The notes under the pieces: generated by a model | What the model saw: only the letters and a program-made list of their open reading frames with translations | The model's database searches: none | Told to the model about the DNA's origin: nothing | Shown: positions 11,926 through 63,995 of the stretch, in pieces | How the letters are laid out: each line of letters opens with the position of its first letter | Position numbering within the stretch: position 1 is the first letter of the stretch | Made by a program: the position numbers and the translations under genes | Virus record (IMG/VR): IMGVR_UViG_3300045988_179760 | DNA: 64,000 bases | Origin: a virus | Direction: 5' to 3' (one strand)

Positions 11926-11944
11926 TGTGGACATGACCACTATA
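11926..11944 (-). promoter_or_regulatory. conserved promoter-like motif copy, variant (tgtggacatgaccactata)
   Basis: Match to the CACTATAACACA subfamily. Confidence 0.5.
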
Positions 11945-19070: not shown

Positions 19071-19678
19071 TCACCATCCTCACTATTAGAGGCGAGTCGG
19101 GTTCGGAGTTCCCTCAACCGGCCTAACCGTTCCTCCACAGCCTGAATACGAACGTCAACCGCAGTCAACGTATCACCATCCGGCTCAGACAACTCATACT
19201 TGCCGGACGACAATCGTTCCAGAAAACTGGTGGGAACATCCCATACCAATAATCGGAGTTTGTCGGGACTGAGATTCAACCCCGTATACAAGCCGGTTTT
19301 AGGCCACATGCCATCCACGAGAGCCACATTCGGCATCATGCGCGGTGGACGGTCGGGCTGATATTTTTCGACTAGGATTCGACCAGCGAACCAGATAATG
19401 TCGCTATCCTGCTTGGAGTACGCGTACAAGTAGTCGTAGGGGTCGATGGTGACTGTGACACGCTTTTCAGCGTCCACGCCCTTATGCCACCAGAAGTATT
19501 TGTCTAAAGCTTCGAACACCAGCCTTTCCACACGAACATTGAACGTCCAAGTCTTCAACTTGTCATCAAACGTTCCACCCAACGCGCGGGAGCGACGGGC
19601 GAACAACGGATTATACGGAGCCTTAACCTTCAAACGGCCATCACTGCGAGTGACCGTAATATCATCAAAACCTGCCAT
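19067..19678 (-). CDS. hypothetical protein (203 aa), co-directional downstream of the DGR RT
   Basis: ORF track. 4-nt overlap with the next gene. Confidence 0.55.
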   Translation of the reverse strand: MAGFDDITVTRSDGRLKVKAPYNPLFARRSRALGGTFDDKLKTWTFNVRVERLVFEALDKYFWWHKGVDAEKRVTVTIDPYDYLYAYSKQDSDIIWFAGRILVEKYQPDRPPRMMPNVALVDGMWPKTGLYTGLNLSPDKLRLLVWDVPTSFLERLSSGKYELSEPDGDTLTAVDVRIQAVEERLGRLRELRTRLASNSEDGE

Positions 19679-19948: not shown

Positions 19949-21178
19949 TCACGGGTGAAAAGCCAGCTTCCGCATTTCACAATGCCTCCGATACCACGCT
20001 TTCTCCCGAGCGCACAGTCCACGACGGTGAGTTAGACCCGACAGTGTGCTCTCATGGCTCGTCCAAGAATCCTGAACTGTCCGCAATCCCACATGCACGC
20101 CATCATATGAGCGGATAAGGTTACGCGCATGCCGTCGGCTTGCACGCAACGCCTTATGGTGCATGCAGATAAGAATACTGCCGTCATCCTGTACGCTGTA
20201 TACGCGTTTCAGGAATGTGAGTTGACTGGTACGACAGTCCACTATGCGGGTCTTGCGCTTGTTTAACCGCAATCCCAATTGATTGACACGCCGCTCATAA
20301 CCGGCCAGCACACGTTCGGCCTGTTCACGATTCTTGCAGAAACAGTAGGCATCATCCATATACCGTCCGTAGAATCCTTGCGACATGCACCAGTGGTCAA
20401 CCTTGTTCAAATACCAGATAGCCATGGTTTGGCTTGTCTGATTACCTAAACCCAAGTGAGGTTCGTCCAATACGAAGATTCTCAATACGGTTAGAATCCG
20501 TTCCACATCCTGCTTCTCCCGTCCGGTGCGGGCGATGCTCCGGTACAGGGTGGAAATCATATCGAACGCTCGTTGGGAGCTGATACTTCCGAAATAGTTG
20601 GAACAGTCGAAGATGACAGCATACGGATGCTCCCATTTGCCCAAAGCCCGCTTATAGTGTAGTTCGAACCGTTTTCGGGCGAACGATGTTCCACGTTTCG
20701 GTAGGCTTGCCGCATTATCGTATATCAGTTGGCTTTCCACGATGGGGACGAGACTGTTGTCGCATAAGGCGCGTTGCACCACCCGGTCTCGGAAGGATAC
20801 CGCGCTGATGTGGCGGAGTTTGCCTCGTTCGGAAATGTCGAATCGGATTGGCGCTCTCTTCTTGTATGTGCCGTCCTCTAATTCTTGGGCGAGTTTCCAA
20901 CAGTTGACGGCACGCCTATTGTCGAAGTTCAACACTGTGTTTTTCCACGTGACGCCGCGTTTGCATTTTCTTGCGGCTTGGTAGAGCGCGTCGAATCCGA
21001 ATGTTTGTTGGAAGTCGATGTAACGGTGGAGCTTCCTGTACTTATCATCCGAGCGTTGTTGCAGTCTGCGTTGGCGTCTTCTACGTCTTTGACTCGCATT
21101 CACGATTTTAATGCTTCCTTCACTAGGGAAAGAGAAAAGAATGGTTGAGGGCAGGTCGTCGGCAACAACCCAAGACAT
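19949..21178 (-). CDS. diversity-generating retroelement (DGR) reverse transcriptase
   Basis: RT motifs in order: FRDRVVQRAL, NAASLPKRGTSFA, VIFDCSNYFGSIS, GLGNQTSQTMAIWYL (the DGR-specific GNxTSQ block), YGRYMDDAYCFC (YxDD), RLNKRKTRIV. Lies immediately 3' of the TR. Confidence 0.9.
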   Translation of the reverse strand: MSWVVADDLPSTILFSFPSEGSIKIVNASQRRRRRQRRLQQRSDDKYRKLHRYIDFQQTFGFDALYQAARKCKRGVTWKNTVLNFDNRRAVNCWKLAQELEDGTYKKRAPIRFDISERGKLRHISAVSFRDRVVQRALCDNSLVPIVESQLIYDNAASLPKRGTSFARKRFELHYKRALGKWEHPYAVIFDCSNYFGSISSQRAFDMISTLYRSIARTGREKQDVERILTVLRIFVLDEPHLGLGNQTSQTMAIWYLNKVDHWCMSQGFYGRYMDDAYCFCKNREQAERVLAGYERRVNQLGLRLNKRKTRIVDCRTSQLTFLKRVYSVQDDGSILICMHHKALRASRRHARNLIRSYDGVHVGLRTVQDSWTSHESTLSGLTHRRGLCAREKAWYRRHCEMRKLAFHP

Positions 21179-21373
21179 GCAATGATGTTGGACGCCCAGC
21201 TTAAGGGGCGAGTATCCGTCGTTTCCGACAGTCTTAATATCTCCCTCAACCTATTTCACACGCAACCCATTTTTCGAGGGGCCGCGCATTCGACCATATC
21301 CCCTTCCCCTTCGGGAGGCTTTCACCCATTGGGCTACTGGCCTATCTGATGTTAGTTTTTTGGTAAGAGGAAT

Positions 21374-21526
21374 CGGGGACAACGGAGTAGCGATAATTCG
21401 CATTGTTGTTGTTGCTGGGGTCACCGTTCGAGTTGACTTGGAGGAAATTGTTGCTGTTGTTCGGGTTGGGCGAACGCTCCCACCAATTGTTGTTGTTGGC
21501 ACCGGAGGGTGCTGAACCGGAAACGG
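21374..21526 (-). repeat. DGR template repeat (TR), 153 bp
   Basis: Aligns base-for-base with 22163-22315. All 22 mismatches are at TR T on the + strand, which is A on the coding strand. Contains AAC AAC AAC runs. Confidence 0.9.
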
Positions 21527-21560
21527 AAACACCATTTTGGATATGGCCGGTTTTGTTTAG

Positions 21561-22082
21561 TTATATTTGGGGTTGAACCCAAGTATCCATTCTAGTGGTG
21601 GTCTTTGACTCGACGGTTTTGGCTTTCTTCAACTGGTCTCGCTCGTATCGGACTGCCCCCGTGAACACTCCCATGGCTTTGTAGAGTGTGCCCGCATAGT
21701 TGACAAATTTCTTCTCCTTGATTACGGGATTGTAGGTGGGGTCGCCTTCCTGACTGTTCTGGTAGGCTTTCATGTCGCGTTCTCGTGGTGGATAGTCTAT
21801 CCAGTCGTCTACGAGGCCGGAGAGTGCGTTCAGCATTCCTTGGGCCTTGCATAAGAGTTGCAGTTTCATCTTATGCTCTTCGAGGGTGCTCGCGTAGATG
21901 GTGTCGGCGCTGTAGGCGGCTGTGTACATGTCGTAGGCGATGTGCATGACGTGTATGGTTTCGATGTTGTCTCGGCTTTTGGGCCATTTCCGGAAGAGGT
22001 TTCTGGTGGCGTAGAGTACGATTCTCGCTTGGTTCGCATATTCGCTTTTTGCTTTTGTCCGCTTGCTGGCGGGTACTGTCAT
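21561..22082 (-). CDS. Avd-like accessory variability determinant (helix-bundle protein)
   Basis: Position between target gene and TR, and basic/aromatic helical composition. Size (173 aa) is larger than canonical Avd, so the start may be internal. Confidence 0.5.
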   Translation of the reverse strand: MTVPASKRTKAKSEYANQARIVLYATRNLFRKWPKSRDNIETIHVMHIAYDMYTAAYSADTIYASTLEEHKMKLQLLCKAQGMLNALSGLVDDWIDYPPRERDMKAYQNSQEGDPTYNPVIKEKKFVNYAGTLYKAMGVFTGAVRYERDQLKKAKTVESKTTTRMDTWVQPQI

Positions 22083-22110
22083 AGGGGCTTCTTTCGTGTG
22101 ATGTTTTAGC

Positions 22111-22135
22111 GGGGGTGGGGATGAACCCCACCCCC
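22111..22135 (-). other. GC-rich hairpin GGGGGTGGGGatgaaCCCCACCCCC immediately 3' of VR (DGR homing hairpin/cruciform)
   Basis: Perfect 10-bp G/C stem with a 5-nt loop, 28 nt downstream of the VR end on the coding strand. Confidence 0.7.
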
Positions 22136-22148
22136 TAAAGATGGGGGA

Positions 22149-23132
22149 TTAGAAGGAGAAAGCGGGGACAACGGAGAAGCGATAATACGCAGTGCCGCCG
22201 TCGCTGGGGTCACCGCTCGAGCCGACTAGGAGGAAACGGTTGCTGTAGTGCGGGTCGGGCGAACGCTCCCACCAATAGTCGTAGCTGGCACCGGAGGGTG
22301 CTGAACCGGAAACGGTTTCGTAGATTCCAGACAGAATATTATTGTTTGAATAGTTGTGCATCACCTTGCCTTGGAAATACTCGTATTGACTTCCCTCCTG
22401 ACTTAACGCTGGGAAACCGTTATAGCTTTTCCACCCGTCGTATATGGTTGGTACGAGTTCCCTGTAGGAGACGAGCCACACCTTGTCTGCTGTGGCGGAT
22501 GCGGCGGAGCCGGAAGTGTTTCCGTAGTACATGTTGTTGGTTTGCTTCAATACGGTGGTCACGTTGTTTTGGAAGTCGGTGGGGAATTGGTTCCAGATTT
22601 CCCCAGTGTTCATCCATTGGCGGAGGTTGCTGTCGCGCCATCCGCCTTTGTTGGTGTAGCCGTCAGAAGCACACGTAGTGGTGTTGTCATTGGGCATAGT
22701 TCCGTTCATGCAGTACGCTTTCGGCAACGAGTTCCACGCCATGAACGTCAAACCAGCCTTTTTACCGCTACCGTCGGCCTTGTCGTCGTGGAGGATGCCG
22801 ATGAGTTTGAACGGGAGGTTAGACCCGTCCGATAGGGTGAGCGAACCTTGCGTGCCTTTATTAAGGTTGTCTTCCATTTCCGCATAGTAGGAGCTTCCCT
22901 TGCCTTTGTCGCTCAAATCGTCGGCAATCTGCTTCAATCCTGCGGCGTTGTAGCCCGCATAGCAGACCTTGTCCACGCCGGTCGAACATTTGGCCGGTTC
23001 CGAAGCGATGGCGCTACCGGTGATGAGTCCGCCGCAGACCGCCGCCACGATGGCGAGGGTGGCGAGGATTCGTTGTCCCAAGTGGCGGTTCACACGGTTA
23101 CTGGCGTGCATGCCCATTTTTGTTCCTTTCAC
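22149..23132 (-). CDS. DGR target: signal-anchored surface protein with lectin-like domain and C-terminal variable region
   Basis: N-terminal hydrophobic anchor ILATLAIVAAVCGGLITG. VR (22163-22315) encodes the last ~50 aa, just before the stop. Confidence 0.85.
   Translation of the reverse strand: MKGTKMGMHASNRVNRHLGQRILATLAIVAAVCGGLITGSAIASEPAKCSTGVDKVCYAGYNAAGLKQIADDLSDKGKGSSYYAEMEDNLNKGTQGSLTLSDGSNLPFKLIGILHDDKADGSGKKAGLTFMAWNSLPKAYCMNGTMPNDNTTTCASDGYTNKGGWRDSNLRQWMNTGEIWNQFPTDFQNNVTTVLKQTNNMYYGNTSGSAASATADKVWLVSYRELVPTIYDGWKSYNGFPALSQEGSQYEYFQGKVMHNYSNNNILSGIYETVSGSAPSGASYDYWWERSPDPHYSNRFLLVGSSGDPSDGGTAYYRFSVVPAFSF
22163..22315 (-). repeat. DGR variable repeat (VR) at the 3' end of the target gene
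   Basis: See TR. Differences are confined to template-adenine positions. Confidence 0.9.
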
Positions 23133-31457: not shown

Positions 31458-32854
31458 TTAGTTTCCGGACTGTTCGGAAACTTTCCCACCTAGTGCGGAA
31501 CCGGCGGCATGACCGGCCACCATACTGTTCAGCAAAGCTTTCAAATCGATGCCCAAGGATTGCGACAAGCCTTCGCTCAACTGGCTCACACTGTTCACCG
31601 TGTCGCCCACGAGCTTCGTGCTGTTTCCGTCGCCGTACATGGTGATGTGGTCAACCTTGGTGAGCGGTTCGGCGGCGGCTCGAACCATGTCGGGGAGAAT
31701 CTGAATATACTGTTGGGCGAGGATGTACGTGTTGTTCATCGCATTGTAGGCTCGGCCTTGGGCGCGGATTGCCTCGGCTTCGCCCACACCCTTCGCCTGT
31801 GCGGCGGAACCCTCGGCCTTGCCTTTGACTTCGGTCGCGTGTGCGTCCGCGTCGGCGGTGGATTGGGTGGCCTGAGCCTCCTGCTGGCGTAGATACAGTT
31901 CCGCATCCGCATGCTTGCGGGTCGTGTACATCTGCGCGTCGGCCTGCTGTTCGGCGGCGTATCTGTCGGCGTCGGCCTTCTTGCGGATGGTCGCGTTCAG
32001 TTTCTGCTCTTCGATTTCGGCGTTCTTCTGTTCGAGGACTGCCTTCTTTTCGGCGGCGGCGATTTCCGCCTCCTGCTCCTTGACCTTGAGAGTCTTGGAC
32101 TGTTCGGCGGCGGTGATGCCCTTCACCGCGTCGGCCTCGGCCTGCGCCTTGTCGGAGATGGATTGGAGTTCGGCTCGTTTCAGGTCGAGCTGGTTCTGAC
32201 GGACGGCCACGTCCTGTTCCGCGTTGATGGACGCGAGCTTCGCATTCCGGCTGATTTCGGCGGCCATTTCAGTGCCCATGTTGGCGATGACGTTCTGACG
32301 GTCGGTGAAGTCTTGAATGTTGAACGTGGTCAATTGAAGGCCAAGCCGTTCCATGTCCACACGGGCGGATTCGGCCACGGTCGCGGCGAACGTGTCCCTG
32401 TTCTCCATGAGCTCCTTCAACTCGGTCTTGCCGATGACCTCGCGCAGCTTGCCCAAGAGCACCTGCGTCACGTCCTTCTCCATTCGCTCCTTGGACTGGT
32501 CAGATAGTTCTTGGCGGCGTTCTCCAACGCCTTCACCTGTTTACCGTTCTCGTCCACGGTCATGGTCTCGGACGCTATCTGGAAGTTCGCGACGGCGTTC
32601 ACGTCGATGAGGATTGCGTCCTTCGTCGGAATCGGCGTGTCGGTTCTCAGGAGCGACTGCACCGCTCCGAGGGAGAGCCAGTCCACGCGCATGATGAACG
32701 GTATGATGAACGCGCTTCCGCCGGAAACGAAGCGTCGTCCACCCGGCCCGGTGATGACCATTACCCGGTCGGCGGGGCAGACCTTGTAGCTTGCGGTCGC
32801 GAGCAGGATGATGAGTATCGCCACTGCCGCGACGATTATCAATGTTGTTGGCAT
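31458..32854 (-). pseudogene. flotillin (SPFH/band-7, FloT-like) gene interrupted by a single-base frameshift near 32468-32483
   Basis: ORFs 32468..32854 (N-terminal SPFH half, ending ...AKNYL) and 31458..32483 (continuation SKERMEKDVTQVLLGKLREV...) are consecutive parts of one flotillin. The 16-nt overlap around ccagtcc indicates a +/-1 indel. Confidence 0.6.
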
Positions 32855-37298: not shown

Positions 37299-37317
37299 TT
37301 ATACTGGAAACGTCCAC
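37299..37317 (+). promoter_or_regulatory. plus-strand copy of the conserved promoter-like motif (TATACTGGAAACGTCCACA)
   Basis: Direct match in the + orientation, 50 nt upstream of the first plus-strand gene. Confidence 0.6.
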
Positions 37318-37368
37318 AAAAAAGGGAGCCACACACTCCCCAACACGCCAGAACAAAAAGAAGAAACC

Positions 37369-41484: not shown

Positions 41485-42207
41485 TCAGATTTTCAGCTCA
41501 TCGATAACGGAAAGGTCAACACCGTCACCCCAATTATCGACAATCTTGCTCAGGTTCTTACGCATTCCGGCAGGAGACTGGTCGTCAACTGGACGGCCGA
41601 AATTCTTCTCCGGCGCGACCGCGTTCAGCACGGAGAACAGCAGGTTGGTCATATCCTTGCCCTGCGCGAACACCAACGTCACCTCTGCGGCAATCATGCC
41701 CGGCTCGGCTGTAGCCAACCCTTCCAACGCGGACGCGAACTCGGAGATTCGACGTTGGTTCTTCGGCTCGGTCAATGCGTCCAGCACTGCTTCCGGAGTG
41801 CTCTTCTTCGTATCGGTCAACGCCTTGGCAAGAGAAACCACACGCTCGTCATCCAACGATTTGACAAGAGGAATCAGCTTCTTGCCGAACTGTTCCTCGA
41901 TGTGCGGCATGGTCTTTTCACGCGGTTTGCGATTGGAACGGCCCTTACCTTTCCCCTTCGGCTTGTCTTCGGTTTCAGTGGACTCAGCGTCCACGTTCAT
42001 GTCCTCACCATCAGCCGGTGCGGACACGTCAGCGACAGGTTCCGAACTCTCCTGATTAAGAGAATCGGATTCCGTCTGCGACTCCTCGACAGAAGACTGC
42101 TCCGGTTCAGCATAATTGTCGGAACCGTAACCATTGTCCTGCTCCGACTGCTGGTTGTTGTTGAATCCCCAATTGGTGAAGTCTGGCATCATACCTTCTT
42201 TCGTCAT
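41485..42207 (-). CDS. hypothetical protein with acidic N-terminal low-complexity region
   Basis: ORF track. The plus-strand alternative (41426..42055) is Ser-rich and looks spurious. Confidence 0.5.
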   Translation of the reverse strand: MTKEGMMPDFTNWGFNNNQQSEQDNGYGSDNYAEPEQSSVEESQTESDSLNQESSEPVADVSAPADGEDMNVDAESTETEDKPKGKGKGRSNRKPREKTMPHIEEQFGKKLIPLVKSLDDERVVSLAKALTDTKKSTPEAVLDALTEPKNQRRISEFASALEGLATAEPGMIAAEVTLVFAQGKDMTNLLFSVLNAVAPEKNFGRPVDDQSPAGMRKNLSKIVDNWGDGVDLSVIDELKI

Positions 42208-42439
42208 ATCCAGCGAACACTCCGGTCGTACAGGCTGTTAACAGTCGGAACGAGGTGTTCTGTATTTTCAATTTACGAGTGTAACGCCCGACGGCATCCC
42301 TAAACGGGGAAAACGGGAAAAACAATTCCCCGCGCCGCCCGCGCCGGTAGTTCCAACAGAAAAGCGGAACCAAAAAGAGTCCCCAACAAATATGAAAAAA
42401 GGAACAGCACCTGACCATTATCAGAAAAACCATGAAAAC

Positions 42440-43110
42440 CATCCAGTCCACGCCGGTAGGTCAACATGAATAGCAGACTCAAAAAAGAAAAGAGAAAAAC
42501 CAAAAAACAAAAAGACAAAAAGATAGAAAACACTCCCCACCAAAAATCAGAAAACAAACACCATCACATCAAAAAGAAGAACCAAGAAAACCAGAAAGAA
42601 AAGAAAAAAAAAGAAAAAGAAGAACATAAGAGAAATAAGAGAAGACATCCTAAGCAAATAGAAGCAACAGAAGAACAGGACAATACTCAGCAACATAATC
42701 AGGAAAGGAACAACAGAGAAAAGGACAATAGAAGAAGAAACGTCTACCCCTAAATCGGGAATACAACGTATGAAAACAACAGAGGCAACGCAACCATCCA
42801 CCAAAAGAACAACATATCAACCCATATGACATACAGGACAGAAGAACAACAGTACCCAAACGCCCCAAGAAACAAGAAAAGCAACAAGCCACACCATCAC
42901 AAGACAAACCGAACACCAGTATCAACACGACGGCACACAACAACCACAGCACAAAACGACAACAGCGAAAAGGTCAATAGTCTCACTAACAAGGTCAACG
43001 ACAATCAGAACAAGGTAACATCAATACAGGAACAGCCAATGCAATGAAAAAAGCAACAGCAAAACCAACAAAAAACTAAATATCAAAAACTATAAATGCC
43101 AGAACTCGGA
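42440..43110 (+). repeat. ~650-bp A+C-rich low-complexity tract with extreme strand asymmetry
   Basis: Top strand is almost entirely A and C with few T. Runs such as aaaagaaaagagaaaaaccaaaaaacaaaaagacaaaaag. Sits in an otherwise roughly 58% GC element. Confidence 0.8.
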
Positions 43111-43145
43111 CAAAACCGTAAACGTTCCGATGAAAACAACGGAAC

Positions 43146-44360
43146 ATGACCCATCAGGAGGCGGTCTTATTGGAAAAACGAACGATTTCCCTGATAATCG
43201 GCTCCGGAGGGCTACTCACAACCATCAAAAAGGCCCTTACGAGAGCCGGAAACATGCGTTGGCAGGTGCCCGCCGCAGACAATATTCAAGCACAGGCCGA
43301 CTATCTGATAAGACATCCGGTGCCCTCCGGGTTCAAAGGAATCATCTTCACCGACAGGGCTGGAAACTGGCTTCCGATAGCCAACGCCGGATACATGGTC
43401 TACTGGTGCAACACCGGTCAGATACCGGTCGGAGCCATGGGCATGAGCGAACAGATGTTACGCATGAGCGTGGCTGATTTCGCACGGACTTATTGGGGAA
43501 TCCAGCTTGCGGACAAGCGTCTCGTAGTCGATATCCTCCAAAACAAAGTGAAGGAGACTGCGGTTCTCCTACCCATCACATCCAACACCGGAGGAGTGGG
43601 GAAGACCACGTCCAGCCGACAGTTGGCAGACCGTGCGTCGCAAGCCGGATTGCGTGTTCTACTCATCGACGGGAACATCCGGCAGTCCAGCCAACGTAGT
43701 TTTTTTGACCCGAGACAGGACAAGCCATTGCATACGATAGCCGACTGGCGACCGGGCATGCAGGTGCAGGTTGGAGCCAATCGAGGACGTGACCTTGGGG
43801 TTCCATACGATATCTGTTTCGCACCTCCAGCGGGCGTCGGAGTGGACTGGCAGATATACCGTCAGTACATCCAAGCGGCACGCCGACTGTGGGATTTCGT
43901 CGTGCTCGACCTTGACCGAATCAGCGCGGACGATTTGGATGATAGGGAGAATATCGCCAACGGTTTACTGCTTCCATACATTCAATCGGGAGACCCTTGT
44001 CTGGTTATCGTCAAGGCTGGAAGGCAGACGCAGATAGACGCGTTGAATCTGCTGACGGCCTTGGCTGAGCATCATCTTCCGAAGGAACTCATCGGCATCA
44101 AGGACACTGTTCCGGTCGGATTGCAAGGTTACAGGCGACTCGACTATACGAGATACGGAACGTTTCTCGGAACCGAATATCAGACGGTCGAGGCAAGCAA
44201 CCATATCGCCAACGGTGATGTCAGATGGGATGACCCCGGTCTTGCTTTTGCTAGGGAGAACATTCTTAACTGGGCTTTGCCCGACCGTGGTTTTAATCCG
44301 GAAAGATTCAATCCGAACGCTAAGAACAGTGAAGGAAAGAAAGGTCGTGGGCGTAAGTGA
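43146..44360 (+). CDS. ParA/MinD-family ATPase with N-terminal extension (CpaE/TadZ-like architecture)
   Basis: Deviant Walker A ITSNTGGVGKTTSS about 150 aa from the N-terminus. LLIDGN follows the P-loop. Confidence 0.65.
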   Translation: MTHQEAVLLEKRTISLIIGSGGLLTTIKKALTRAGNMRWQVPAADNIQAQADYLIRHPVPSGFKGIIFTDRAGNWLPIANAGYMVYWCNTGQIPVGAMGMSEQMLRMSVADFARTYWGIQLADKRLVVDILQNKVKETAVLLPITSNTGGVGKTTSSRQLADRASQAGLRVLLIDGNIRQSSQRSFFDPRQDKPLHTIADWRPGMQVQVGANRGRDLGVPYDICFAPPAGVGVDWQIYRQYIQAARRLWDFVVLDLDRISADDLDDRENIANGLLLPYIQSGDPCLVIVKAGRQTQIDALNLLTALAEHHLPKELIGIKDTVPVGLQGYRRLDYTRYGTFLGTEYQTVEASNHIANGDVRWDDPGLAFARENILNWALPDRGFNPERFNPNAKNSEGKKGRGRK

Positions 44361-45553
44361 CATTCGATGACCGTTTTCTTTTCGACCCGAACGACGAGAA
44401 TCTTTGGAAGACCGGAAGCATTGCCGACTGGTATAAAGGCAACGACATGTTCGAGATGGAGCATCCCGGATTGTTCGCGCAGACCCACCCGTGGTTCGTT
44501 GCGAACAAACTGTTCGCGGAGACAATGGTGAAAGCGAACAGCGAACTCGTTTCGAGTATCCTCGGAGCATTGTTCACGTGGAAGACATGCACGGTTGACC
44601 AACTACGTGCGGGACTTTCCATCAAAGGCGCTCCCGCTTTCGAACGTGACGAACCGAACCTGTATGGTGCGATGAACCGTTTGGGAATCATCAACGTCGG
44701 TTTCAGTCAGGCGGAACGATTGTACGGTCAGACCGTGAATCATGTTTGGCTTTCACCGTCGAACAGTCCACGTCTTATCAACCGTGCGATGAAATTGTAC
44801 GGGATGGAAAAGTGGATGCGTGAGACGATGGCGGTTTCCTATTACGCGGGGAATCGTTTCCATGTTCGGCATAACACTTATGCGGCGCACGCGGGATTGA
44901 TGTTGGCACGCGATTCACGTGTGAAATTTTCATCCGGTGATGGTTGGGGGAAATTCCGTAGCGTTGACCCACAGGCTGTTGCCGAGTCGAAGGTTGGCAA
45001 GGCTTGCGCTACCGATGTGGTGACGTTGTGCCGGAACAATGTGTTGGCGGGTATCGAAATCCAAACGTCCAACAGCGAATTGGATAAGAAGATGCAGAAC
45101 TGGGCGAAGATGCTCGCCTACTCTCCGATGAAACGTCGCGGACTCATCTGCGTATGGTTGCAGATACCGAAGGCGAACGAAGGTTACGAATCGTTCAATG
45201 CGGTGATACAACGCACGCAAGGCATGACGGAAATGGTCGTGGGCAATCCGACCGTGTCGCAACGAATGGGAGTCGCGGTTTGGGATGAATGGTTCGAGCA
45301 TGGGATGCCGACCGACAGGTTCGGTGAATATACGGACATGAGTGGAACACGGCGCAACATTTTCTCCGACGAGTGGGTGCAATACACTCCGCAGGTTCGT
45401 GACGTTCGCAAAGTCAGCGAATGGGGTTGGGACGTGACGCGGGACATCATCAAAAAGGATTGGGGTTGGGACGTTTCCGGTTGGACGATGCCGGAAGCGT
45501 ACCGTGGCGGTTTCTACGGTTTCATTGGAAAGGATTGCGATGGTCTCCACTGA
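44357..45553 (+). CDS. hypothetical protein (398 aa) in the transfer-like operon
   Basis: ORF track. Coupled to flanking genes. Confidence 0.55.
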   Translation: MTFDDRFLFDPNDENLWKTGSIADWYKGNDMFEMEHPGLFAQTHPWFVANKLFAETMVKANSELVSSILGALFTWKTCTVDQLRAGLSIKGAPAFERDEPNLYGAMNRLGIINVGFSQAERLYGQTVNHVWLSPSNSPRLINRAMKLYGMEKWMRETMAVSYYAGNRFHVRHNTYAAHAGLMLARDSRVKFSSGDGWGKFRSVDPQAVAESKVGKACATDVVTLCRNNVLAGIEIQTSNSELDKKMQNWAKMLAYSPMKRRGLICVWLQIPKANEGYESFNAVIQRTQGMTEMVVGNPTVSQRMGVAVWDEWFEHGMPTDRFGEYTDMSGTRRNIFSDEWVQYTPQVRDVRKVSEWGWDVTRDIIKKDWGWDVSGWTMPEAYRGGFYGFIGKDCDGLH

Positions 45554-46006: not shown

Positions 46007-48667
46007 ATGGGTAATCCGAACTGGTATCAGATAACCAGAACATTGCAACAGCTTGACGCGGACGAGCAACGTTCGAAAATGGAAAGCATTCCAGCCGAAC
46101 TGGATGGTTGCACCCTTCTCCTCATCAAGAAGGGCGAGGAGCCGGTCAAGGAATACATTTACGGCGACGGCGAGGGAATCATCAACGCCGGACAGTTGGC
46201 TGGATTCGATGCGAAATTGGTCGAAGACGACGACGGGCCGGTGTTGCCGGATGGCGTGAACAGTGCGGCACATCCTCTTGTACCATTCCGCGCCCGGTTG
46301 AACTCGAAAAGCAACATGGAGAAAATGCGGACGAACTATTCCGGTGTTCGTACAAGTATCGAGAAGGTCATGCCGCCGGACAGTTACGTGAGCATCACCC
46401 TTCGCAATCAGGGATACTTCGAGCAGATTCGTATTCGCAATTGGATTAGCGACGAATACAATGCGGTGGAGGATTCAAGCGAACTCGCTTCGACCAACAC
46501 GATGTGCGCCCGTGTGAGTTTCGGTTGCCGTCAGGCTTCGCGTAACCGACAGCTTGCGCAGAAGATTGGTCAAATCATCTGCCCGCTCATATCCAACATG
46601 TCCAGTCATGCGAGCCGTCCGAAATTCGGGTTGCTGTTCGTCACCATGCTGTTGGAAGTGTTGTCCGTGATTTGGAGTGTGTGCGGTCTTGCAAGAGGAT
46701 ACGTGATGGATGGGATTTTCCCATTGTTCCATTCCGCTTGGGGTTTCGGAATCGCGCTTCCGTTGCTTGCTGTGACGTTGGTCGTGTTCCTGTTCCTCAT
46801 GCTGTTGTCGTGCATTCCGTTCGTTTACATTCCAAGACCTCAGATTGCCGGTGGCGCGGTGGCGCTCATGCTTTACCTGCTGTTGGGGTTGCTTCCGCTC
46901 CCGACATTCATTCCGATTCTTTTCGTTCCTCTTCTTGTATTCGCGTTCATCCGTTGGAAGAACTGGACGTTGTGGGATGACATTTTCCAAACGCCACGAA
47001 GATATTATGCGATTGCGAACGACCGTGGCGCGAACGAGTCCGATAATCAGACCCGTCTTGGCGTGCGCACGCATAAGGAGCGCGTGTCGGCTTATGGTGC
47101 GCAACGTACCACGTTGATTCTTCCTCCGATTATCGTAAGCTCCGTGTTCACTCCGGTCACTCAGGGAGTGGCGATGAAACAGGAATTGCATCCCGTTCCG
47201 GAAGTATTGTCGCATGATGGCATCTTCCTTGGGAAGGATGATACGGGACGTAACTGTTATCTTGACCCGTCGCAATTGTTCGGCGGTATCGCCATCAACG
47301 GCGAGGCCGGTTCCGGTAAGACCGTGCTCACCCATGGCATCAGCCAGTGGGCCATCAGCGCACGCGAGACCACCAGTCCGAAAATCTGGGGGCGCGACTC
47401 CCGTATCATCCATTTTTGGATGAAGGATGATACCGGTGTTAACGTGTTGGAACGTTATCGCAAACGTCACGTTTTCACCAGTCCGCAACGCGTCGTCTAT
47501 TTGGCCGACCCGAACAGTGTGTGCTTGGACATGCTCGGCATGAAGGACGGGAATAATGCGATGGAGACTGCGGCGAGCGTGGCGAAGACCATGCGTTACT
47601 CGTTCGATGACGGTGATATTCTGAACGACTCGCAGAACATCATCACCCAAGCGTTGACCATCGGCGTGGCGGTTGACCGTTACGTGCAGGAGGAACGCAA
47701 GCATAATCCCGAATCCGCGAACAAGGATTGGGAAAGCGAGATTGTGAAACGTTGCCATCAGCTCGAACAATCGTATCCGGGTGCGGAACAGTTGCGAATG
47801 CAGTTGAGTCCAATCGGATGGGCCGTCGTCGCATTATGCGGTTCCGACGGTCAGGCCGGTTCCGCGAAAGCGTTGGGTCATGTGTGCCGCGCGTTGAGTA
47901 TGGAATTGAAGAGTGGCTACATGTTCGAGGAGATGACGTATGCCGCCCGTGCCGCCGAGCAATTGTATGGCCGTCCGGACGCGGCTGGTCATACGGTTCG
48001 TTCCGACCGTGACATTCTCGCCAAGACGAACGCCTCGTTGAACAAGGTGAATCAGTTCCTTCCCATCGAACACATGTTCACGGCACGTCGTGGCAGAGTG
48101 ACTTGGACGAACATTCTCGACCATGCTGGCGATTATCACATTGTGCTCGCACCTCATAATGGTTATTCGTTGCCGGAACGTATGGATAAGATTCTCGGCG
48201 GCTGGCTCATGTACCGTTTCTGGAATACGGTGTTCGCGCATTGCAAGGATTGGGATAAGGCTGGCAAGTGGACGATGCTCGTGTGTGACGAGTTGAGCTT
48301 GTTGGCTAACGGCAATGACGGTATCATGCCCGCGTTGCGTGAGCAGGGTCGTTCGTTCGGTCTTCTTCTCGTGTTCGCCACCCAGTATCCGACCCAGTTG
48401 TCCGACGCGATGTTGGATTCGTTCATCGGCTATTCGACGTTCATCACATACAATACGACGATTCCGCGTATTGCCGATATGACGGCGAAACGTTTGACAA
48501 ACAATGACGGTGAGGATGGTTGGCGTTCGGGCGCGGTCATGAATCTTCCACGTTATGCGGCGGCTGTTCGCACTCGAACCCAAGAACAGTTGCAACCGAC
48601 ATTCCTTGTTCATGTGAACGATTTCGATAACGGTTATCGCAATGGTGACATGGACGATGATGACTAG
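46007..48667 (+). CDS. FtsK/SpoIIIE/VirD4-like P-loop ATPase with internal TM segments (putative conjugative DNA translocase/coupling protein)
   Basis: Walker A GIAINGEAGSGKTVLT, Walker B WTMLVCDELS, LVFATQYPTQL. Four predicted TM helices at aa ~205-320. Confidence 0.7.
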   Translation: MGNPNWYQITRTLQQLDADEQRSKMESIPAELDGCTLLLIKKGEEPVKEYIYGDGEGIINAGQLAGFDAKLVEDDDGPVLPDGVNSAAHPLVPFRARLNSKSNMEKMRTNYSGVRTSIEKVMPPDSYVSITLRNQGYFEQIRIRNWISDEYNAVEDSSELASTNTMCARVSFGCRQASRNRQLAQKIGQIICPLISNMSSHASRPKFGLLFVTMLLEVLSVIWSVCGLARGYVMDGIFPLFHSAWGFGIALPLLAVTLVVFLFLMLLSCIPFVYIPRPQIAGGAVALMLYLLLGLLPLPTFIPILFVPLLVFAFIRWKNWTLWDDIFQTPRRYYAIANDRGANESDNQTRLGVRTHKERVSAYGAQRTTLILPPIIVSSVFTPVTQGVAMKQELHPVPEVLSHDGIFLGKDDTGRNCYLDPSQLFGGIAINGEAGSGKTVLTHGISQWAISARETTSPKIWGRDSRIIHFWMKDDTGVNVLERYRKRHVFTSPQRVVYLADPNSVCLDMLGMKDGNNAMETAASVAKTMRYSFDDGDILNDSQNIITQALTIGVAVDRYVQEERKHNPESANKDWESEIVKRCHQLEQSYPGAEQLRMQLSPIGWAVVALCGSDGQAGSAKALGHVCRALSMELKSGYMFEEMTYAARAAEQLYGRPDAAGHTVRSDRDILAKTNASLNKVNQFLPIEHMFTARRGRVTWTNILDHAGDYHIVLAPHNGYSLPERMDKILGGWLMYRFWNTVFAHCKDWDKAGKWTMLVCDELSLLANGNDGIMPALREQGRSFGLLLVFATQYPTQLSDAMLDSFIGYSTFITYNTTIPRIADMTAKRLTNNDGEDGWRSGAVMNLPRYAAAVRTRTQEQLQPTFLVHVNDFDNGYRNGDMDDDD

Positions 48668-52700: not shown

Positions 52701-53659
52701 ACGCTCCGTTGCCGTCGCCGTTCACTGGAACTGGTGATGGCAATGGGGGAGCCGGTGGTCCGGTTCCCACACCGTCCGGTTCGGATAATGGAGCCGGTAG
52801 TGCGATGCCGACTTCGGATGGGGCGCCGACCGAAACGATTCCAACTTCCGATGGAGCGCAACAGGCTCCCCGAATGGGAGAGAACGAAGCGTTCAATCAG
52901 GTACGTGCGGGAATGATGGCCGACTTCGTGGATAACCAGCACATGTCTCAAGAGGATGCGGAACAGGCTTTCCAAGAAGCCGTGGCCTCCGGTGAAGTCG
53001 ATAATTCTGTCCAAGCGTATATAAGCCAAAACAATCAATCTCCTATCGAGAATGCGACGGCTCAACCTGAGATGAATGCCAATCAGCCGGTGTACAACAC
53101 TGAGACAGGTGAGATTGTCGGTGAGACCCTACCCTCCGGAACGATGGACGCCGCCGTGTCCGCCGCCTCCACTTGGCAGAACGCGACCGGAAACACGACT
53201 CCGATGCCTGAATCGGTGAACAATGCACTGCAACAGGCATACATGCGCGAGAATCCGGTACAGCAGTCTCCGGAAGAGCATTTGCGGATGGCGCAGGAGG
53301 AGTGGACTAGGACGACTGGTCTTCCGAGCGATATGATGCCTGCGAGTGCGGAACGTGCCATGAATCCGAATGGAATTCAGCCGAGTAGAGAATTCACGGT
53401 TGATTCCGGTCGGACGCAACAGCAGGGTTCGGTACAGGCGCAAGCTCCGCGACAGCAGTCTCAACCGCAGCCACAAGCTCAGGTGAGGCAGCAGCCGTCG
53501 GTTCGAATGCAACCGCCAACCACACCGTCACCGACCGTCAAACAGCCAGTGGACGCCAACCCGTCAAACCTGACAGGTTTCCCCTCCGTAGGCAATCTTC
53601 ACATGAAGAAACCGCCGACCGGAGGACAGCCGACACCCAAACCGCCGTTCATGAAGTGA
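49703..53659 (+). CDS. 1318-aa polytopic membrane protein with long Ala/Gly/Gln/Pro-rich C-terminal low-complexity tail (candidate VirB6/TrbL-like channel component)
   Basis: Signal peptide. TM clusters at aa ~140-200 and ~570-690. C-terminal 500 aa low complexity (AARVAGAGAAMAGAGLAFAARAA..., QQSQPQPQAQVRQQ). The functional call is an inference. Confidence 0.55.
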   Translation: MNTKYRDPVKRAGRRNLLVILMLCVVMTLFVLPSSVFAAQVNDSTTTITCANGGTDSATSDISSCLPSGRWGNYVGEITSRTEPYSGSDVAGWFSNVKQTISSQTHIVLPNILMQLTQVCWSSALSISQFAASFEPMKQAGANIDSAVSTMVTSLMDGGIPATIAVLGIVAWVGAAGFQIGTVKEASKRIVIMVLCFASITMLGAGAAKTGKNATEPATGSPWWVVQTINNTINKLSVNLDLDGMADSDKNMMSYHHAANGAKTNCQDYLYFMHQAYDEQAKSNGNQDTSNVTKAINRIWEETSLRSFVTMQYGNPQTTGTSSFRIAENARQGYCHVLEMKANTNTTIQKDLTNKAMALHISDQRAKWLFSVDGWVDPRNPYFTDKPLERENATYLSRAGVFWETCGTKRNQEIYARAGWATLINNLGDTGTKNIKNGSTKVRVKIDDLDNVKPTNGGKGVMDAKQNGSEDETIQQTTSVCQTILKQGSVIFSRSTDINKEDDGTYKDQQNDTNWGDSATVGWRFDVPNVSGTWSEANLRDAQDDSTVTGGAKKTIDYMYGNNNVDTLGACGTLIGGIVNLVVWGLLSLVLILTKLMMIMMALFLVVTFLVQAFPIGEKPKKALKNWATYTCQLSMVGALYGALGALATFICGLTLKFTSASSGSFTYQLIAGLSPLLALAAIGMFCSKVLKCGNPFSVNALMGMAGGTAMASGLRKGMHMIGQYRMMQAMRGGFRRGGNGVGRLSTNGTGAGMAHNGARQSETVLSKMSRAQQDSLSQGDRNLMNRNAKEFEAIQTRGRGSKNWARMDKNTVRGSLAGAKLHFEDSTGKFKGRLNKAVSKFHGEDNTEAFAHSIAQRHPGMSLNDVQRKAQRMNHLNNAGRKLQGAARVAGAGAAMAGAGLAFAARAAKSAPLRNVAARGAKVAAKAAVTGALFSNPITAPLGLIAAGKLATDRDAWHGAAQVGKGIAHAGGKGLQLGHDALQKRLDRTQRIIDMANGDAPLPSPFTGTGDGNGGAGGPVPTPSGSDNGAGSAMPTSDGAPTETIPTSDGAQQAPRMGENEAFNQVRAGMMADFVDNQHMSQEDAEQAFQEAVASGEVDNSVQAYISQNNQSPIENATAQPEMNANQPVYNTETGEIVGETLPSGTMDAAVSAASTWQNATGNTTPMPESVNNALQQAYMRENPVQQSPEEHLRMAQEEWTRTTGLPSDMMPASAERAMNPNGIQPSREFTVDSGRTQQQGSVQAQAPRQQSQPQPQAQVRQQPSVRMQPPTTPSPTVKQPVDANPSNLTGFPSVGNLHMKKPPTGGQPTPKPPFMK

Positions 53660-54114: not shown

Positions 54115-54351
54115 TTTTTGTTCGGCGGTAAAAACGAAAGAAGGCCGTATCCGTTTCATCGCGGACGCGGCTTTCTGTTTTTCTGTTCCGCCTGTAAACT
54201 TGTACGCCGTTCAACTGTTTTACTGGAATGTTTCTCCGAACGGTTTTCTGGTTCGGCGTGCCGACTTTTCGCCGTTGTTATCATCGAAACAAAAAGACAT
54301 ACCCCCACCATGATTCCGTCCACACCGGAAGCAGAAAAAGGAAACCAGAAC

Positions 54352-55014
54352 ATGAGAGTCAAAAACCATACGGTCATCATCACCGTCGCAATCATCAAAG
54401 GCGGTTCAGGAAAAACAACCACATCAATGGCATTGGCCGAACTATTGCACAAACGCGGGGAACAAGTCACAGTCTTGGACTCCGACAACACGGGCGGCGC
54501 GACCATGTGGGAAATGTACGTCGAACAGGAAAACCGCAGACGCAGACAGGACAATCCGGACGCGGAACCATACACGCTCGGCTTCCCCGTCGTGCAAACC
54601 AACGAAGCCGTATTGAACAATCCGGAACTCATCCGCGAAAAATATTCAGGCTGGGTCATCATCGACACCCCACCGTCCGACGCGGGAGTGGTGCAGGCGG
54701 CGATAAACGCGGGCGACGTGGTGATAATCCCATGCCAGCCATCCGTATCCGATTTGACCCACGCGGGACGCACATACGCGGCGGCACGCAACGGCATCGT
54801 CCTGTTGACACGCGTGAAGCCGAGAACGAAACTCGCCCGGAACAGCATCAGCGAACTGGATGAGGAAGGCATCGCACGGTTCGAAACCGTCATCACGGAA
54901 CGTGAAGCCGTCAAGAACATGTACGGCACAACCGAAATCGACAACAAGGAATATTCCAGCGTCGTGCAGGAACTCATCGACTATCTGTCTGAAATCAATC
55001 TGGTGGAAGAATAA
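54352..55014 (+). CDS. parA: ParA/Soj-family plasmid partition ATPase
   Basis: Start MRVKNHTVIITVAIIKGGSGKTTTSMALA (deviant Walker A KGGSGKTT). DSDNTGG. ORF 54118..55014 trimmed to this Met. Confidence 0.8.
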   Translation: MRVKNHTVIITVAIIKGGSGKTTTSMALAELLHKRGEQVTVLDSDNTGGATMWEMYVEQENRRRRQDNPDAEPYTLGFPVVQTNEAVLNNPELIREKYSGWVIIDTPPSDAGVVQAAINAGDVVIIPCQPSVSDLTHAGRTYAAARNGIVLLTRVKPRTKLARNSISELDEEGIARFETVITEREAVKNMYGTTEIDNKEYSSVVQELIDYLSEINLVEE

Positions 55015-56478: not shown

Positions 56479-56718
56479 GTGACCACGACTCCTTCAGTGT
56501 TAGGTGGTTGCCATTCCCCGGCTGGTTCCAACAGTGCGGGGATTTTCTTTTCTCAGAACAGTATACGTCACTACCTACCCCTTATAGATTCTTTTCTACC
56601 CTCCGTCTTTTTGTAGCTTCGAACTGCTTACGAAAAAGGTCGAACGGGGCATGAGGAAGTGCCACAGAACGTGAGAAAGCGGAACCAAAAGTTGGAACTT
56701 CTGACACACATAGACAAA

Positions 56719-56784
56719 AAAGTGGGCACTTTCGACACGGAAAGTGGGCACTTTCGACACGGAAAGTGGGCACTTTCGACACGC
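56719..56784. repeat. three tandem 22-bp iterons (AAAGTGGGCACTTTCGACACGG)
   Basis: Perfect copies at 56719, 56741 and 56763 (the last ends ACGC), plus a partial fourth copy. Confidence 0.85.
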
Positions 56785-56799
56785 TTTCGACCCGAAACG

Positions 56800-57115
56800 C
56801 CTACTCCCATAAGGGATTTCGACACCTGCAAAAGATATACAAAAGATTACAAAAGATATTAATATCCCTTGTATTCCCTTCTTTTTCAAAAAACAAGTTT
56901 TTCAAAAAGAAGCAAAAAATCAAAAAATTAGAATAAAACCATTTTTTTGATTCTACGTTCAGACAGGTCTAAACCTGCTTAAGGGTATCTTCAAAGCTTT
57001 TAAGAAAAAAAGTCATGTCAATATGACCGTTCAGACAGGGTGAACCCTGAGCGACGATTATCCTCAATGCTGTTTTTCGTTTCAACAACGTTGGCGTTTA
57101 GACAGGTCTGAATGT
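56800..57115. promoter_or_regulatory. AT-rich putative origin of replication with three CGTT(C/T)AGACAGG boxes
   Basis: Roughly 70% AT stretch. Boxes at 56956, 57027 and 57095, each followed by a short inverted repeat (cagg..cctg). Confidence 0.5.
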
Positions 57116-57282
57116 TTTCGAGGGAAGAGAGAAAAAGAAAAGTTCCGGAAAAAGAAAAACAGAGAAGCCAGCACGGCCGGTGGATGCATGTCGAAAACCC
57201 CGAAGCCGATATAGGAAACCTCGGACGGAAGGTAGACTTGAAGACAGTGCATGACAAACGGAAATGAATTCGGAGCGGAACT

Positions 57283-62870: not shown

Positions 62871-63995
62871 ATGCTCAGCACGCTCACCTACGCGGTGCGG
62901 GTCAAAACTACCTCCACCCAGTCAGAAATACTCGACGCCACCTGCTCCGCCTACCTCGACTGCTGCAACATGGTCAGCAAAACAGCGTGGGAACATAAGA
63001 CGTTAAGTCAGAAAACCCTCAACCAGCTCGCCTACCACAGGCTCCGCGACGAATACCATGTCGGAGCGCAAATGGCGCAATCCTCCATCATCCGCGTCAT
63101 CGGCAACTATCGGACAATCAAAGAGACGCATGGAACCCCTTGGGCGACCAGCCAGCCGGAATACCATTCCCTTGGATACGACCTTGTATGGAACAGGGAT
63201 TACAGCATCCTAAAAGACGGACGGTTGAGTGTGAACACGCTCGAAGGGCGAATCAAATTCCCTATCGACTGGACGCACATGCCGGAAACCTATCGTCACG
63301 GAAAATTCGGCACGGCCCGACTATTGAACCGGAACGGGGAATGGCTACTGCTTATCCCCAGCACCATAGAACTTCCCCACCCATCCCAACCACAGCAGGT
63401 GGTCGGAGTGGATTTGGGCATACGTTTCCTCACCACCACCTACGACAGTGACGGCCATACCGACTTCTATGACGGGAAGGAGGTGAAGAACAAGCGCGAG
63501 CATTACAAGAGGCTTCGCATCACCCTCCAGAAGAAGGGGACGCGTAGCGCGAGACGCAGACTCAGGAACATCGGCAACAGAGAAAACCGTTGGATGCGGG
63601 ACGTGAACCATCAGGTCTCGAAGGCACTCGTCAACCGACAGTCAAAGCCTACGCTCTTCGCGTTGGAAAACCTCGAAGGCATTCGCCACGCCACGGAAAA
63701 AGTTCGCAGACAAGACCGGTATACGCAAGTCAGCTGGGCATTCCACCAGCTACGCCAGATGATTGAATACAAGGCTCTGAAAGCCGGGCATTCCACCATT
63801 GCGGTTGACCCGCATTACACGAGTCAGACCTGTCCGAAATGCGGCATGATACGCAAGGCGAACAGGAACAAACGGTTGCACGAATACCAATGCTCGAACT
63901 GCGGCTACAGGTCCAATGACGACCGTGTGGCCGCTATGAACATTCAACGGCTCGGATATCAGAGTCTAGTTGAATCCCATTCGGACAAGCTCTGA
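62871..63995 (+). CDS. tnpB: IS605-family TnpB (OrfB)
   Basis: RuvC-I GVDLGIRFLTTTYDSDG, RuvC-II ...ALENLEGI..., zinc finger CPKCGMIRKANRNKRLHEYQCSNCGYRSNDDRVAAMNI. Unrelated in sequence to the TnpB at 7731. Confidence 0.85.
   Translation: MLSTLTYAVRVKTTSTQSEILDATCSAYLDCCNMVSKTAWEHKTLSQKTLNQLAYHRLRDEYHVGAQMAQSSIIRVIGNYRTIKETHGTPWATSQPEYHSLGYDLVWNRDYSILKDGRLSVNTLEGRIKFPIDWTHMPETYRHGKFGTARLLNRNGEWLLLIPSTIELPHPSQPQQVVGVDLGIRFLTTTYDSDGHTDFYDGKEVKNKREHYKRLRITLQKKGTRSARRRLRNIGNRENRWMRDVNHQVSKALVNRQSKPTLFALENLEGIRHATEKVRRQDRYTQVSWAFHQLRQMIEYKALKAGHSTIAVDPHYTSQTCPKCGMIRKANRNKRLHEYQCSNCGYRSNDDRVAAMNIQRLGYQSLVESHSDKL

Follow-up and report, generated by a model that had tools for sequence, protein, structure and literature searches.

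The intergenic tract that precedes a transfer-type operon in the 64,000-nucleotide stretch of DNA analysed here (the window) is best read as a non-coding cis element that is set by its base composition and lies between two conserved modules of the operon's control region. Positions 42440-43110 contain 53.1% A, 23.2% C, 15.1% G and 8.6% T on the plus strand; the window overall contains 23.3% A, 23.8% T and 52.9% G+C, rather than the roughly 58% G+C first given for the replicon. When the 64 kb are scanned in windows of 300 bp, both the highest A fraction (0.59; mean 0.232, sd 0.063) and the lowest T fraction (0.073; mean 0.239, sd 0.054) fall in the tract, and no other segment of more than 300 bp combines T of at most 11% with A of at least 35%. 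The AT skew of the tract is about +0.6, compared with -0.3 to +0.3 in the other intergenic regions of the window. The scan of composition and skew bears out the original prediction of an A-rich, T-poor anomaly, which is indeed the most extreme A-high, T-low stretch of the 64 kb, and corrects its details. The phrase "almost no T" was right as to the depletion, which is 2.7-fold, and overstated as to near-absence, T being about 9%; the proposed length of about 650 bp was too short, the maximal-scoring T-poor segment being 863 bp long (Table 1). With respect to the downstream operon, the A-rich strand is the sense one, and the T-depletion continues across the conserved leader and ends at the start codon of the first operon gene.

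A second compositional oddity of the window is found at 31700-32200, where the plus strand is G+C-rich and has only 7-11% A. It is located inside a minus-strand open reading frame (31458-32483) with an SPFH/Band_7 N-terminus and seems to be the coding strand of a charged protein of low complexity, with no relation to the tract.

Table 1. Features of the T-poor zone, its flanks and the neighbouring genes (positions in the window).
Feature	Position	Strand	Description
Acidic-protein gene, divergent	41485-42189	-	adjoins the tract in every case
Left module, ordinary composition	42190-42282		palindrome 42226-42253; nearly invariant among 18 variants
Whole T-poor zone	42283-43145 (863 bp)	+	A 50.5%, C 24.4%, G 16.1%, T 8.9%
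G+C-rich 9-bp direct repeat	42329-42346	+	CCCGCGCCG twice; found by Tandem Repeats Finder; left edge of the zone
Unit of about 38 nt, two copies	42339-42376, 42448-42485	+	direct repeat, CGCCGGTAGnTC..AGCnGA..CAAAAA
Hypervariable centre	42380-42969	+	no conserved sequence; many indels; composition kept
95-aa K/E/N-rich ORF	42466-42753	+	not a gene: no periodicity, indels, chance-length frames
Start of right module	42970-43021	+	AAGGTMA three times, 21 bp apart (42970, 42991, 43012); -10-like TAACAT 43016-43021
Conserved A-rich leader	43022-43169	+	GTTCCG-N10-CGGAAC (43124-43145); Shine-Dalgarno AGGAGG (43156-43161)
First operon gene, divergent ParA/MinD/CpaE-like P-loop ATPase	43146-44360	+	Pfam CbiA/AAA_31; NCBIfam matches weak
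398-aa protein	44357-45553	+	PD-(D/E)XK restriction-endonuclease-like fold and winged helix
886-aa membrane P-loop ATPase, coupling-protein-like	46007-48667	+	Walker motifs; weak PHROG matches only

The tract occupies the position originally assigned to it, between a minus-strand gene and the gene of the ParA-like protein, and within the control region of a transfer-type operon. Since homologues of the ParA-like protein are confined to Bifidobacterium megaplasmids, including pMP7017 of B. breve (57% identity) and plasmids of B. longum, the window is a relative of the pMP7017 family. pMP7017 is a conjugative megaplasmid of 190 kb (PMC10832533, PMC8313286), and its homologues occur in about 10% of microbiome samples (PMC10832533). 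In indexed public assemblies, the exact sequence of the ParA-like protein occurs in 969 blocks, most of them on contigs of about 200-228 kb from the human gut.

The genes around the tract keep a conserved order. To the left of the intergenic region stand a 254-aa gene and the divergent gene of an acidic protein of about 200-260 aa. To its right are the genes of the ParA-like protein, of proteins of about 400 and 150 aa and of a membrane P-loop ATPase of about 880 aa, followed by two small genes and that of a membrane protein of more than 1100 aa. The acidic protein consists of a disordered N-terminal part of about 86 aa and a C-terminus forming a helical bundle, a structure that proved uninformative. 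Its gene likely starts at a conserved MPDF methionine (ATG 42189), the longest open reading frame extending to 42207, and the ParA-like gene is likelier to start at TTG 43170, 8 nt past the Shine-Dalgarno sequence, than at 43146; both start codons have probably been mis-set by the longest-ORF rule. The ParA-like protein is not the partition ParA, which is encoded by a separate gene at 54118-55014. The 398-aa protein is, to judge from its predicted fold, a candidate atypical (MOBC-like) relaxase or nickase, and may be the relaxase that is missing from pMP7017-type plasmids. It has no match to any sequence family, relaxase families included, and searches of PDB sequences with profiles of the acidic, 254-aa and 398-aa proteins returned no matches. 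The operon is recognizable as transfer-related by the coupling-protein-like ATPase of 886 aa; the pMP7017 counterpart of this ATPase bears the annotation 'AAA family ATPase'.

The window also contains a complete diversity-generating retroelement (DGR) at 19949-23132. It comprises a reverse transcriptase gene (19949-21178, minus strand), a template repeat (21360-21526) and a variable repeat (22149-22315) situated at the 3' end of the minus-strand gene 22149-23132; in 23 of the 26 mismatches between the repeats a template adenine is changed to another base. A connection of the DGR with the tract was rejected, as neither the template nor the variable repeat of the DGR, which is 20 kb away, is related to the tract. 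An intact TnpB gene is present at 62871-63995.

Comparison with related plasmids showed that composition is retained while the sequence drifts. T-depletion on the operon-sense strand is kept in 57 of 58 related loci, including those on plasmids with 60-65% GC, and a tract of 250-1025 bp is present in each of the 46 additional metagenome loci whose upstream DNA was long enough. Twelve divergent loci were compared, the ParA-like proteins of which range from identical to that of the window down to 47% identity. A T-poor core of 290-1130 bp occupies the same place with the same polarity in eleven of them, and contains 4-13% T and 31-51% A; in nearly all lineages the operon-sense strand is kept at 4-11% T, 31-52% A and about 70% purine, the purine fraction ranging from 61 to 73%. 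The exception is the lineage L022, in which only about 60 nt of the tract are left. The tract is therefore not a neutral one-off expansion, the alternative named with the original prediction, being present in all but one of the syntenic relatives. In pMP7017, the tract is the most extreme 200-bp window of the entire 190-kb plasmid. The A+T content of the tract exceeds the plasmid mean by 4-17 points in every lineage (60% compared with 47% in the window). The smallest excess, only 4 points, is that of L021, where the tract has 39% A+T in a plasmid with 35% A+T, and T is still only 7.6%. At positions 3000-3300 of L021, the tract is lengthened by the remnant of a TnpB (IS605 OrfB) gene, which was recognized by its zinc-finger motif. 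A search of a plasmid database with the DNA of the tract gave a single chance match.

The same behaviour is seen at short range, in an alignment of 18 distinct variants of the window's own lineage. About 140 bp on the left and about 190 bp on the right are nearly invariant. The centre occupies 804 alignment columns, 62% of which are gapped, and 46% of its ungapped columns are variable, compared with 12-20% in the flanks. The length of the tract varies even among near-identical plasmids. The window and the sister variant L001 differ by 3.9% in the tract and by 0.4-1.1% in the adjacent genes; all 13 differences in the ParA-like gene are synonymous, so that the tract diverges at about the synonymous rate. 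As sequence and length are free but the T-depletion is kept, selection seems to act on composition alone, and we infer that it is base composition rather than sequence that is selected.

The left module is presumably the promoter and the 5' untranslated region of the acidic-protein gene. Next to it, the direct repeat that forms the left edge of the T-poor zone is C-rich on the sense strand, and CCCGCGC is found at the same place in nine of eleven divergent lineages. The first of the two units of about 38 nt contains the inverted repeat GTTCC-N11-GGAAC (42350-42370) and the motif AAAGCGGAAC. A unit of 109 bp (42342-42450) is missing from the sister variant L001. The sequence GAAAAGCGGAACC is found also in the distant lineage L024, and the left-edge motif of the tract recurs almost unchanged as an 18-mer at 56674-56691, AGAAAGCGGAACCAAAAG. 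The intergenic region at 56479-57282, about 1.5 kb downstream of the partition ParA gene (54118-55014), is iteron- or origin-like. It contains an A+T-rich stretch, three copies of GGAAAGTGGGCACTTTCGACAC (about 56722-56790) and three inverted-repeat units resembling GTTCAGACAGGTCTAAACCTG.

The right module is nearly invariant in the window's lineage, even where the centres of the variants cannot be aligned. Its motif GGTMWH-N16-18-TAWCAT, located at 42993-43021 in the window, precedes the start codon by 135-158 nt in five lineages, and in L013 the equivalent of the TAACAT site is the only sigma-70-like match of the intergenic region. On the strength of these motifs, the start of the right module (42970-43021) is the probable promoter or operator of the operon. 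Eleven of 18 lineages have an equivalent of the leader stem, [GT]TTCCG..CGGAAC, and other stems are found at the same place in L014 and L024. A consensus RNA structure of the conserved leader was not found by RNAalifold; inspection by eye shows a leader stem of differing sequence at the same place in several lineages.

A search for inverted repeats at the edges of the tract, as proposed at the outset, found the pattern GTTCC-N9-13-GGAAC in both flanks. It occurs five times in the window (at 19216, 29466, 42350, 43124 and 55168) where 0.55 occurrences are expected, and the copies at 42350 and 43124 bracket the tract. This repeat may be the operator of a plasmid-wide regulator. The left copy is not universal and is missing in a common variant. 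An interpretation of GGAAC as an ECF-sigma element was rejected because there is no matching -10 element. A different motif, a 34-bp promoter element, has been described as that of a plasmid-specific regulon in the transcriptome paper on pMP7017. The core of this element is matched with three mismatches each at 37300-37318 (plus strand) and 11926-11944 (minus strand) of the window, and it is also found inside the homologous intergenic region of B. callitrichidarum (L015), before an extra small gene.

That the tract encodes one or more disordered low-complexity proteins rich in lysine and glutamate is scarcely credible, although open reading frames of 95 and 73 aa exist in it, some assemblies have open reading frames annotated at this place by gene callers, and the plasmid does encode charged, coiled proteins on T-poor strands. 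Three-base periodicity, as judged by chi-square and Fourier power, is at background level in all 12 tracts and strong in the adjacent gene every time. The longest stop-free frames in the tract of the window are those expected from its composition (p = 0.5), and neither the position nor the frame of the open reading frames is conserved among relatives. The sister variant L001, which has an identical ParA-like protein, differs from the window by tract indels of 109, 8, 3 and 1 bp. The 109-bp indel lies upstream of the 95-aa frame, and the 8-bp and 3-bp deletions of L001-type variants fall inside it. This frame, for which no family match was found and which is not conserved in pMP7017, was judged probably not coding in the original prediction; the lack of 3-base periodicity and the frameshifting indels of close relatives (8 bp and 1 bp) show that it is not real. 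With this, the coding interpretation has largely been refuted already, and the open reading frames annotated in the tract are artefacts of a biased alphabet. An example is provided by the RefSeq record of pMP7017, in which a 92-aa hypothetical protein (WP_172685975.1) is annotated on the A-poor minus strand at 53034-53309 (7351-7626 of L016), within that plasmid's version of the tract; the call is most likely spurious. The practical consequence is that gene callers place spurious open reading frames in the tract, including this RefSeq coding sequence.

A tract that is non-coding might still be a by-product without function, arising from a slippage-prone low-complexity region or from a local strand-asymmetric mutation bias. 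Such an origin would agree with evolution at about the synonymous rate, with the many small indels, with a microsatellite-like periodicity of 6-8 bp, and with the state of L022, which is without most of the tract. Gains and losses of T are also balanced among the polymorphisms of the window's lineage (17 and 15; 5 and 1 among singletons, numbers too small to test selection). However, despite deep divergence and the deletion bias of bacteria, 57 of 58 loci still have the tract at the same place. The repeated 8-mers of the tract amount to 0.22, compared with 0.15 in shuffles, its compressibility is within 3-6% of that of shuffles, and Tandem Repeats Finder detects in it only short, weak arrays. 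Slippage of a few motifs is thus no explanation, the repetitiveness of the tract being only a little above that of sequences shuffled at equal composition, and simple-repeat expansion was rejected because the complexity is close to that of composition-matched shuffles. Regional mutational skew was rejected too. When 11 lineages are pooled, the AT skew at third codon positions in the flanking genes is no weaker far from the tract than close to it and never comes near the tract value; such sharp borders, without a leak into synonymous sites, argue against a regional mutation bias due to single-strand exposure. Asymmetry driven by deamination would moreover not look like the observed combination of a weak GC skew with an AT skew of +0.6 to +0.85. 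We regard a functionless by-product as very unlikely.

Three further explanations assign a function to the tract as duplex or as DNA. According to the first of them, which we consider quite unlikely, the tract is a duplex spacer or insulator between two operator/promoter modules, as in a loop made by a repressor bound to the flanking inverted repeats. The conserved modules on both sides, the free length of the centre and the excess of GTTCC-N9-13-GGAAC, with two copies at the tract edges, agree with a spacer, but a duplex spacer requires neither constant polarity nor avoidance of T, the left inverted repeat is not universal, and the A-tracts are without helical phasing. The spacer could also be a one-way barrier, where antisense transcription would have to proceed on a very weak rU:dA hybrid and sense transcription would pass. 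Nearest-neighbour calculation indeed gives the antisense RNA:DNA hybrid a penalty of +0.10 to +0.26 kcal/mol per nt, 3-6 sd above the window mean; yet -10-like hexamers are not depleted on the minus strand, nor are stop codons in the tract of the window. A "signal-free spacer" was rejected on the same grounds, as the number of stop codons per kb equals the window mean and TANNNT is commoner on the minus strand. Highly improbable, in our estimate, is a role in DNA structure or silencing, in which homopurine runs would form H-DNA or a triplex, or the tract would be a landing pad for an AT-binding nucleoid protein (Lsr2-like). Both had been suggested in the original prediction and neither is borne out. 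A purine run of 32 nt is present in the tract of the window, but the longest run is just 6-10 nt in L021, L023 and L025, and the tract contains about 25% C. The elevated A+T content of the tract in every lineage would suit a silencing pad, but what is conserved is the strand asymmetry and not the AT-richness, as seen in L021, where T is low with A+T barely above background; AT-binding proteins need no asymmetry of one strand. Helically phased A-tracts or curvature were looked for in the tract and rejected, none being found.

The remaining explanation, which is unlikely but carries more weight with us than the spacer, is that the conserved flanks hold the transfer origin and the tract is an unfoldable stretch that is unwound first or last, on which a helicase, a coupling protein or SSB would be loaded; alternatively, the tract would tolerate imprecise processing of the ends. 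It is favoured by the content of the downstream operon (a ParA-like ATPase, a PD-(D/E)XK protein with a winged helix-turn-helix and a coupling-protein-like ATPase), by GTTCC-N-GGAAC at both ends together with the three direct repeats spaced by 21 bp in the right module, and by the hypervariable length among near-identical plasmids. MOBC relaxases are related to restriction endonucleases and have been reported to combine a PD-(D/E)XK fold with a winged helix-turn-helix (PMC6499999). MOB-suite found no relaxase on pMP7017, and MOB typing classes plasmids of this type as non-mobilizable, yet pMP7017 is described as conjugative (PMC10832533). On the other hand, a nic consensus could not be recognised, the sequence of the 398-aa protein does not place it in any relaxase family, and a common variant lacks the left inverted repeat. 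A constraint on single-stranded DNA also leaves the end of the T-depletion at the start codon unexplained. The core of the tract itself does not appear to be the oriT that the original prediction had envisaged for this position, palindromes being depleted in it.

We favour a function exerted on a single strand, because the polarity is constant and the sequence immaterial: a constraint that is strand-specific yet indifferent to sequence must, we infer, act on one strand. Tentatively, as a reasonable possibility, we propose that the sense strand is kept free of U/T as an unstructured leader or platform on which a factor is loaded ahead of the transfer genes. The sense strand would be selected for the absence of U/T and would hence lack secondary structure and U-tract terminators. 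Ahead of the transfer genes, the tract would act either as a long leader without structure or as an unwound platform, and a sequence-independent factor loading on it would gate expression or DNA processing. Candidates for such a factor would be Rho or another RNA-binding regulator, a helicase, a coupling protein or SSB. The version with an RNA leader is our first choice, and the one with single-stranded DNA at an oriT is a close second.

The features of the tract that agree with this single-strand proposal are its folding, its freedom from terminator-like runs and its orientation. The predicted folding energy of the sense strand is -39 kcal/mol over 621 nt, compared with -110 for the antisense strand and -223 for a coding control; runs of five T are absent and palindromes are few. 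The polarity of the tract is that of the operon in all tract-bearing loci. The main weakness of the RNA-leader version concerns the start of transcription. No promoter is predicted at the left end, and the best promoter-like element is that at the right end (42993-43021); if TAACAT belongs to the promoter, transcription starts only downstream of most of the tract. The tract region is not reported in the transcriptome paper on pMP7017 or in its supplement, the pMP7017 literature consulted makes no mention of a T-poor tract, and Rfam 15 gave no match at E <= 1 to either strand of 41800-43500.

More speculatively, and in our view rather improbably, the tract would be a new kind of cis element of conjugative plasmids, a 'T-less cassette' whose information is its strand-specific composition and which is kept unpaired. 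The hypervariable length would be accommodated by a version in which the transferred strand may be processed and rejoined there in any register. This version presupposes a plasmid with a non-covalent, nuclease-type relaxase.

Several known systems resemble the tract in part. Like rut regions and Rho-attenuated leaders, it is defined by composition and lack of structure, would be untranslated, extends over hundreds of nucleotides and stands before an operon. The sense strand, with the weak predicted folding given above, would provide an unstructured RNA stretch of at least 80 nt, as rut sites do. However, rut sites are C-rich and usually U-rich, whereas the tract avoids U and is dominated by A. 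The C/G ratio is 1.2-1.5 in six of the eleven long-tract lineages and near equal or reversed in L014, L015, L023, L024 and L025; since C exceeds G in most, but not all, lineages, the classical rut signature is not universal. The overdrive of the Ti plasmid is a conserved sequence of about 24 bp, T/G-rich on one strand, next to the origin of DNA transfer, and it works with VirC1, a ParA-type ATPase encoded nearby. By analogy, the tract may be likened to it as a strand-asymmetric cis element close to the gene of a ParA-like ATPase, but it differs from overdrive in its length of 250-1025 bp and in having no conserved sequence. The overdrive core AACAAACA was rejected as a component of the tract, with a single match at chance level.

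Poly(dA:dT) and A-tract upstream elements share with the tract the A-richness of one strand, the position upstream of a promoter-like element and a length that varies by slippage. The tract, in contrast, is without phasing and far longer than the known UP and curved-DNA elements of bacteria; in GC-rich lineages, A-runs are few (the longest of 5) and T is still low. The resemblance to MOBC-type oriTs consists in the location upstream of an operon that encodes a protein with a restriction-endonuclease fold and a coupling-protein-like ATPase, and in the repeats of the flanks; the difference is that the 398-aa protein has no sequence similarity to any described relaxase family. We know of no T-poor tract in the oriTs described. 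With R-loop-prone polypurine and poly(A) tracts, the element has in common a sense strand with 61-73% purine and a strong positive AT skew. Polyadenine and polypurine tracts are the two most enriched motifs of R-loops mapped in Drosophila (PMC9254486). The tract differs from them in its content of about 25% C and in that the advantage of the sense hybrid is modest and not extreme for the window: by nearest-neighbour calculation, the hybrid-minus-duplex energy of the sense strand is -0.05 to -0.11 kcal/mol per nt, compared with a window mean of -0.03 (sd 0.045).

Megaplasmids of the pMP7017 type are common in the human gut, and the tract provides a concrete handle on the control region of their transfer operon. 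If the interpretation given here is true, the tract would be a rare bacterial case of selection on the composition of a strand without selection on its sequence.
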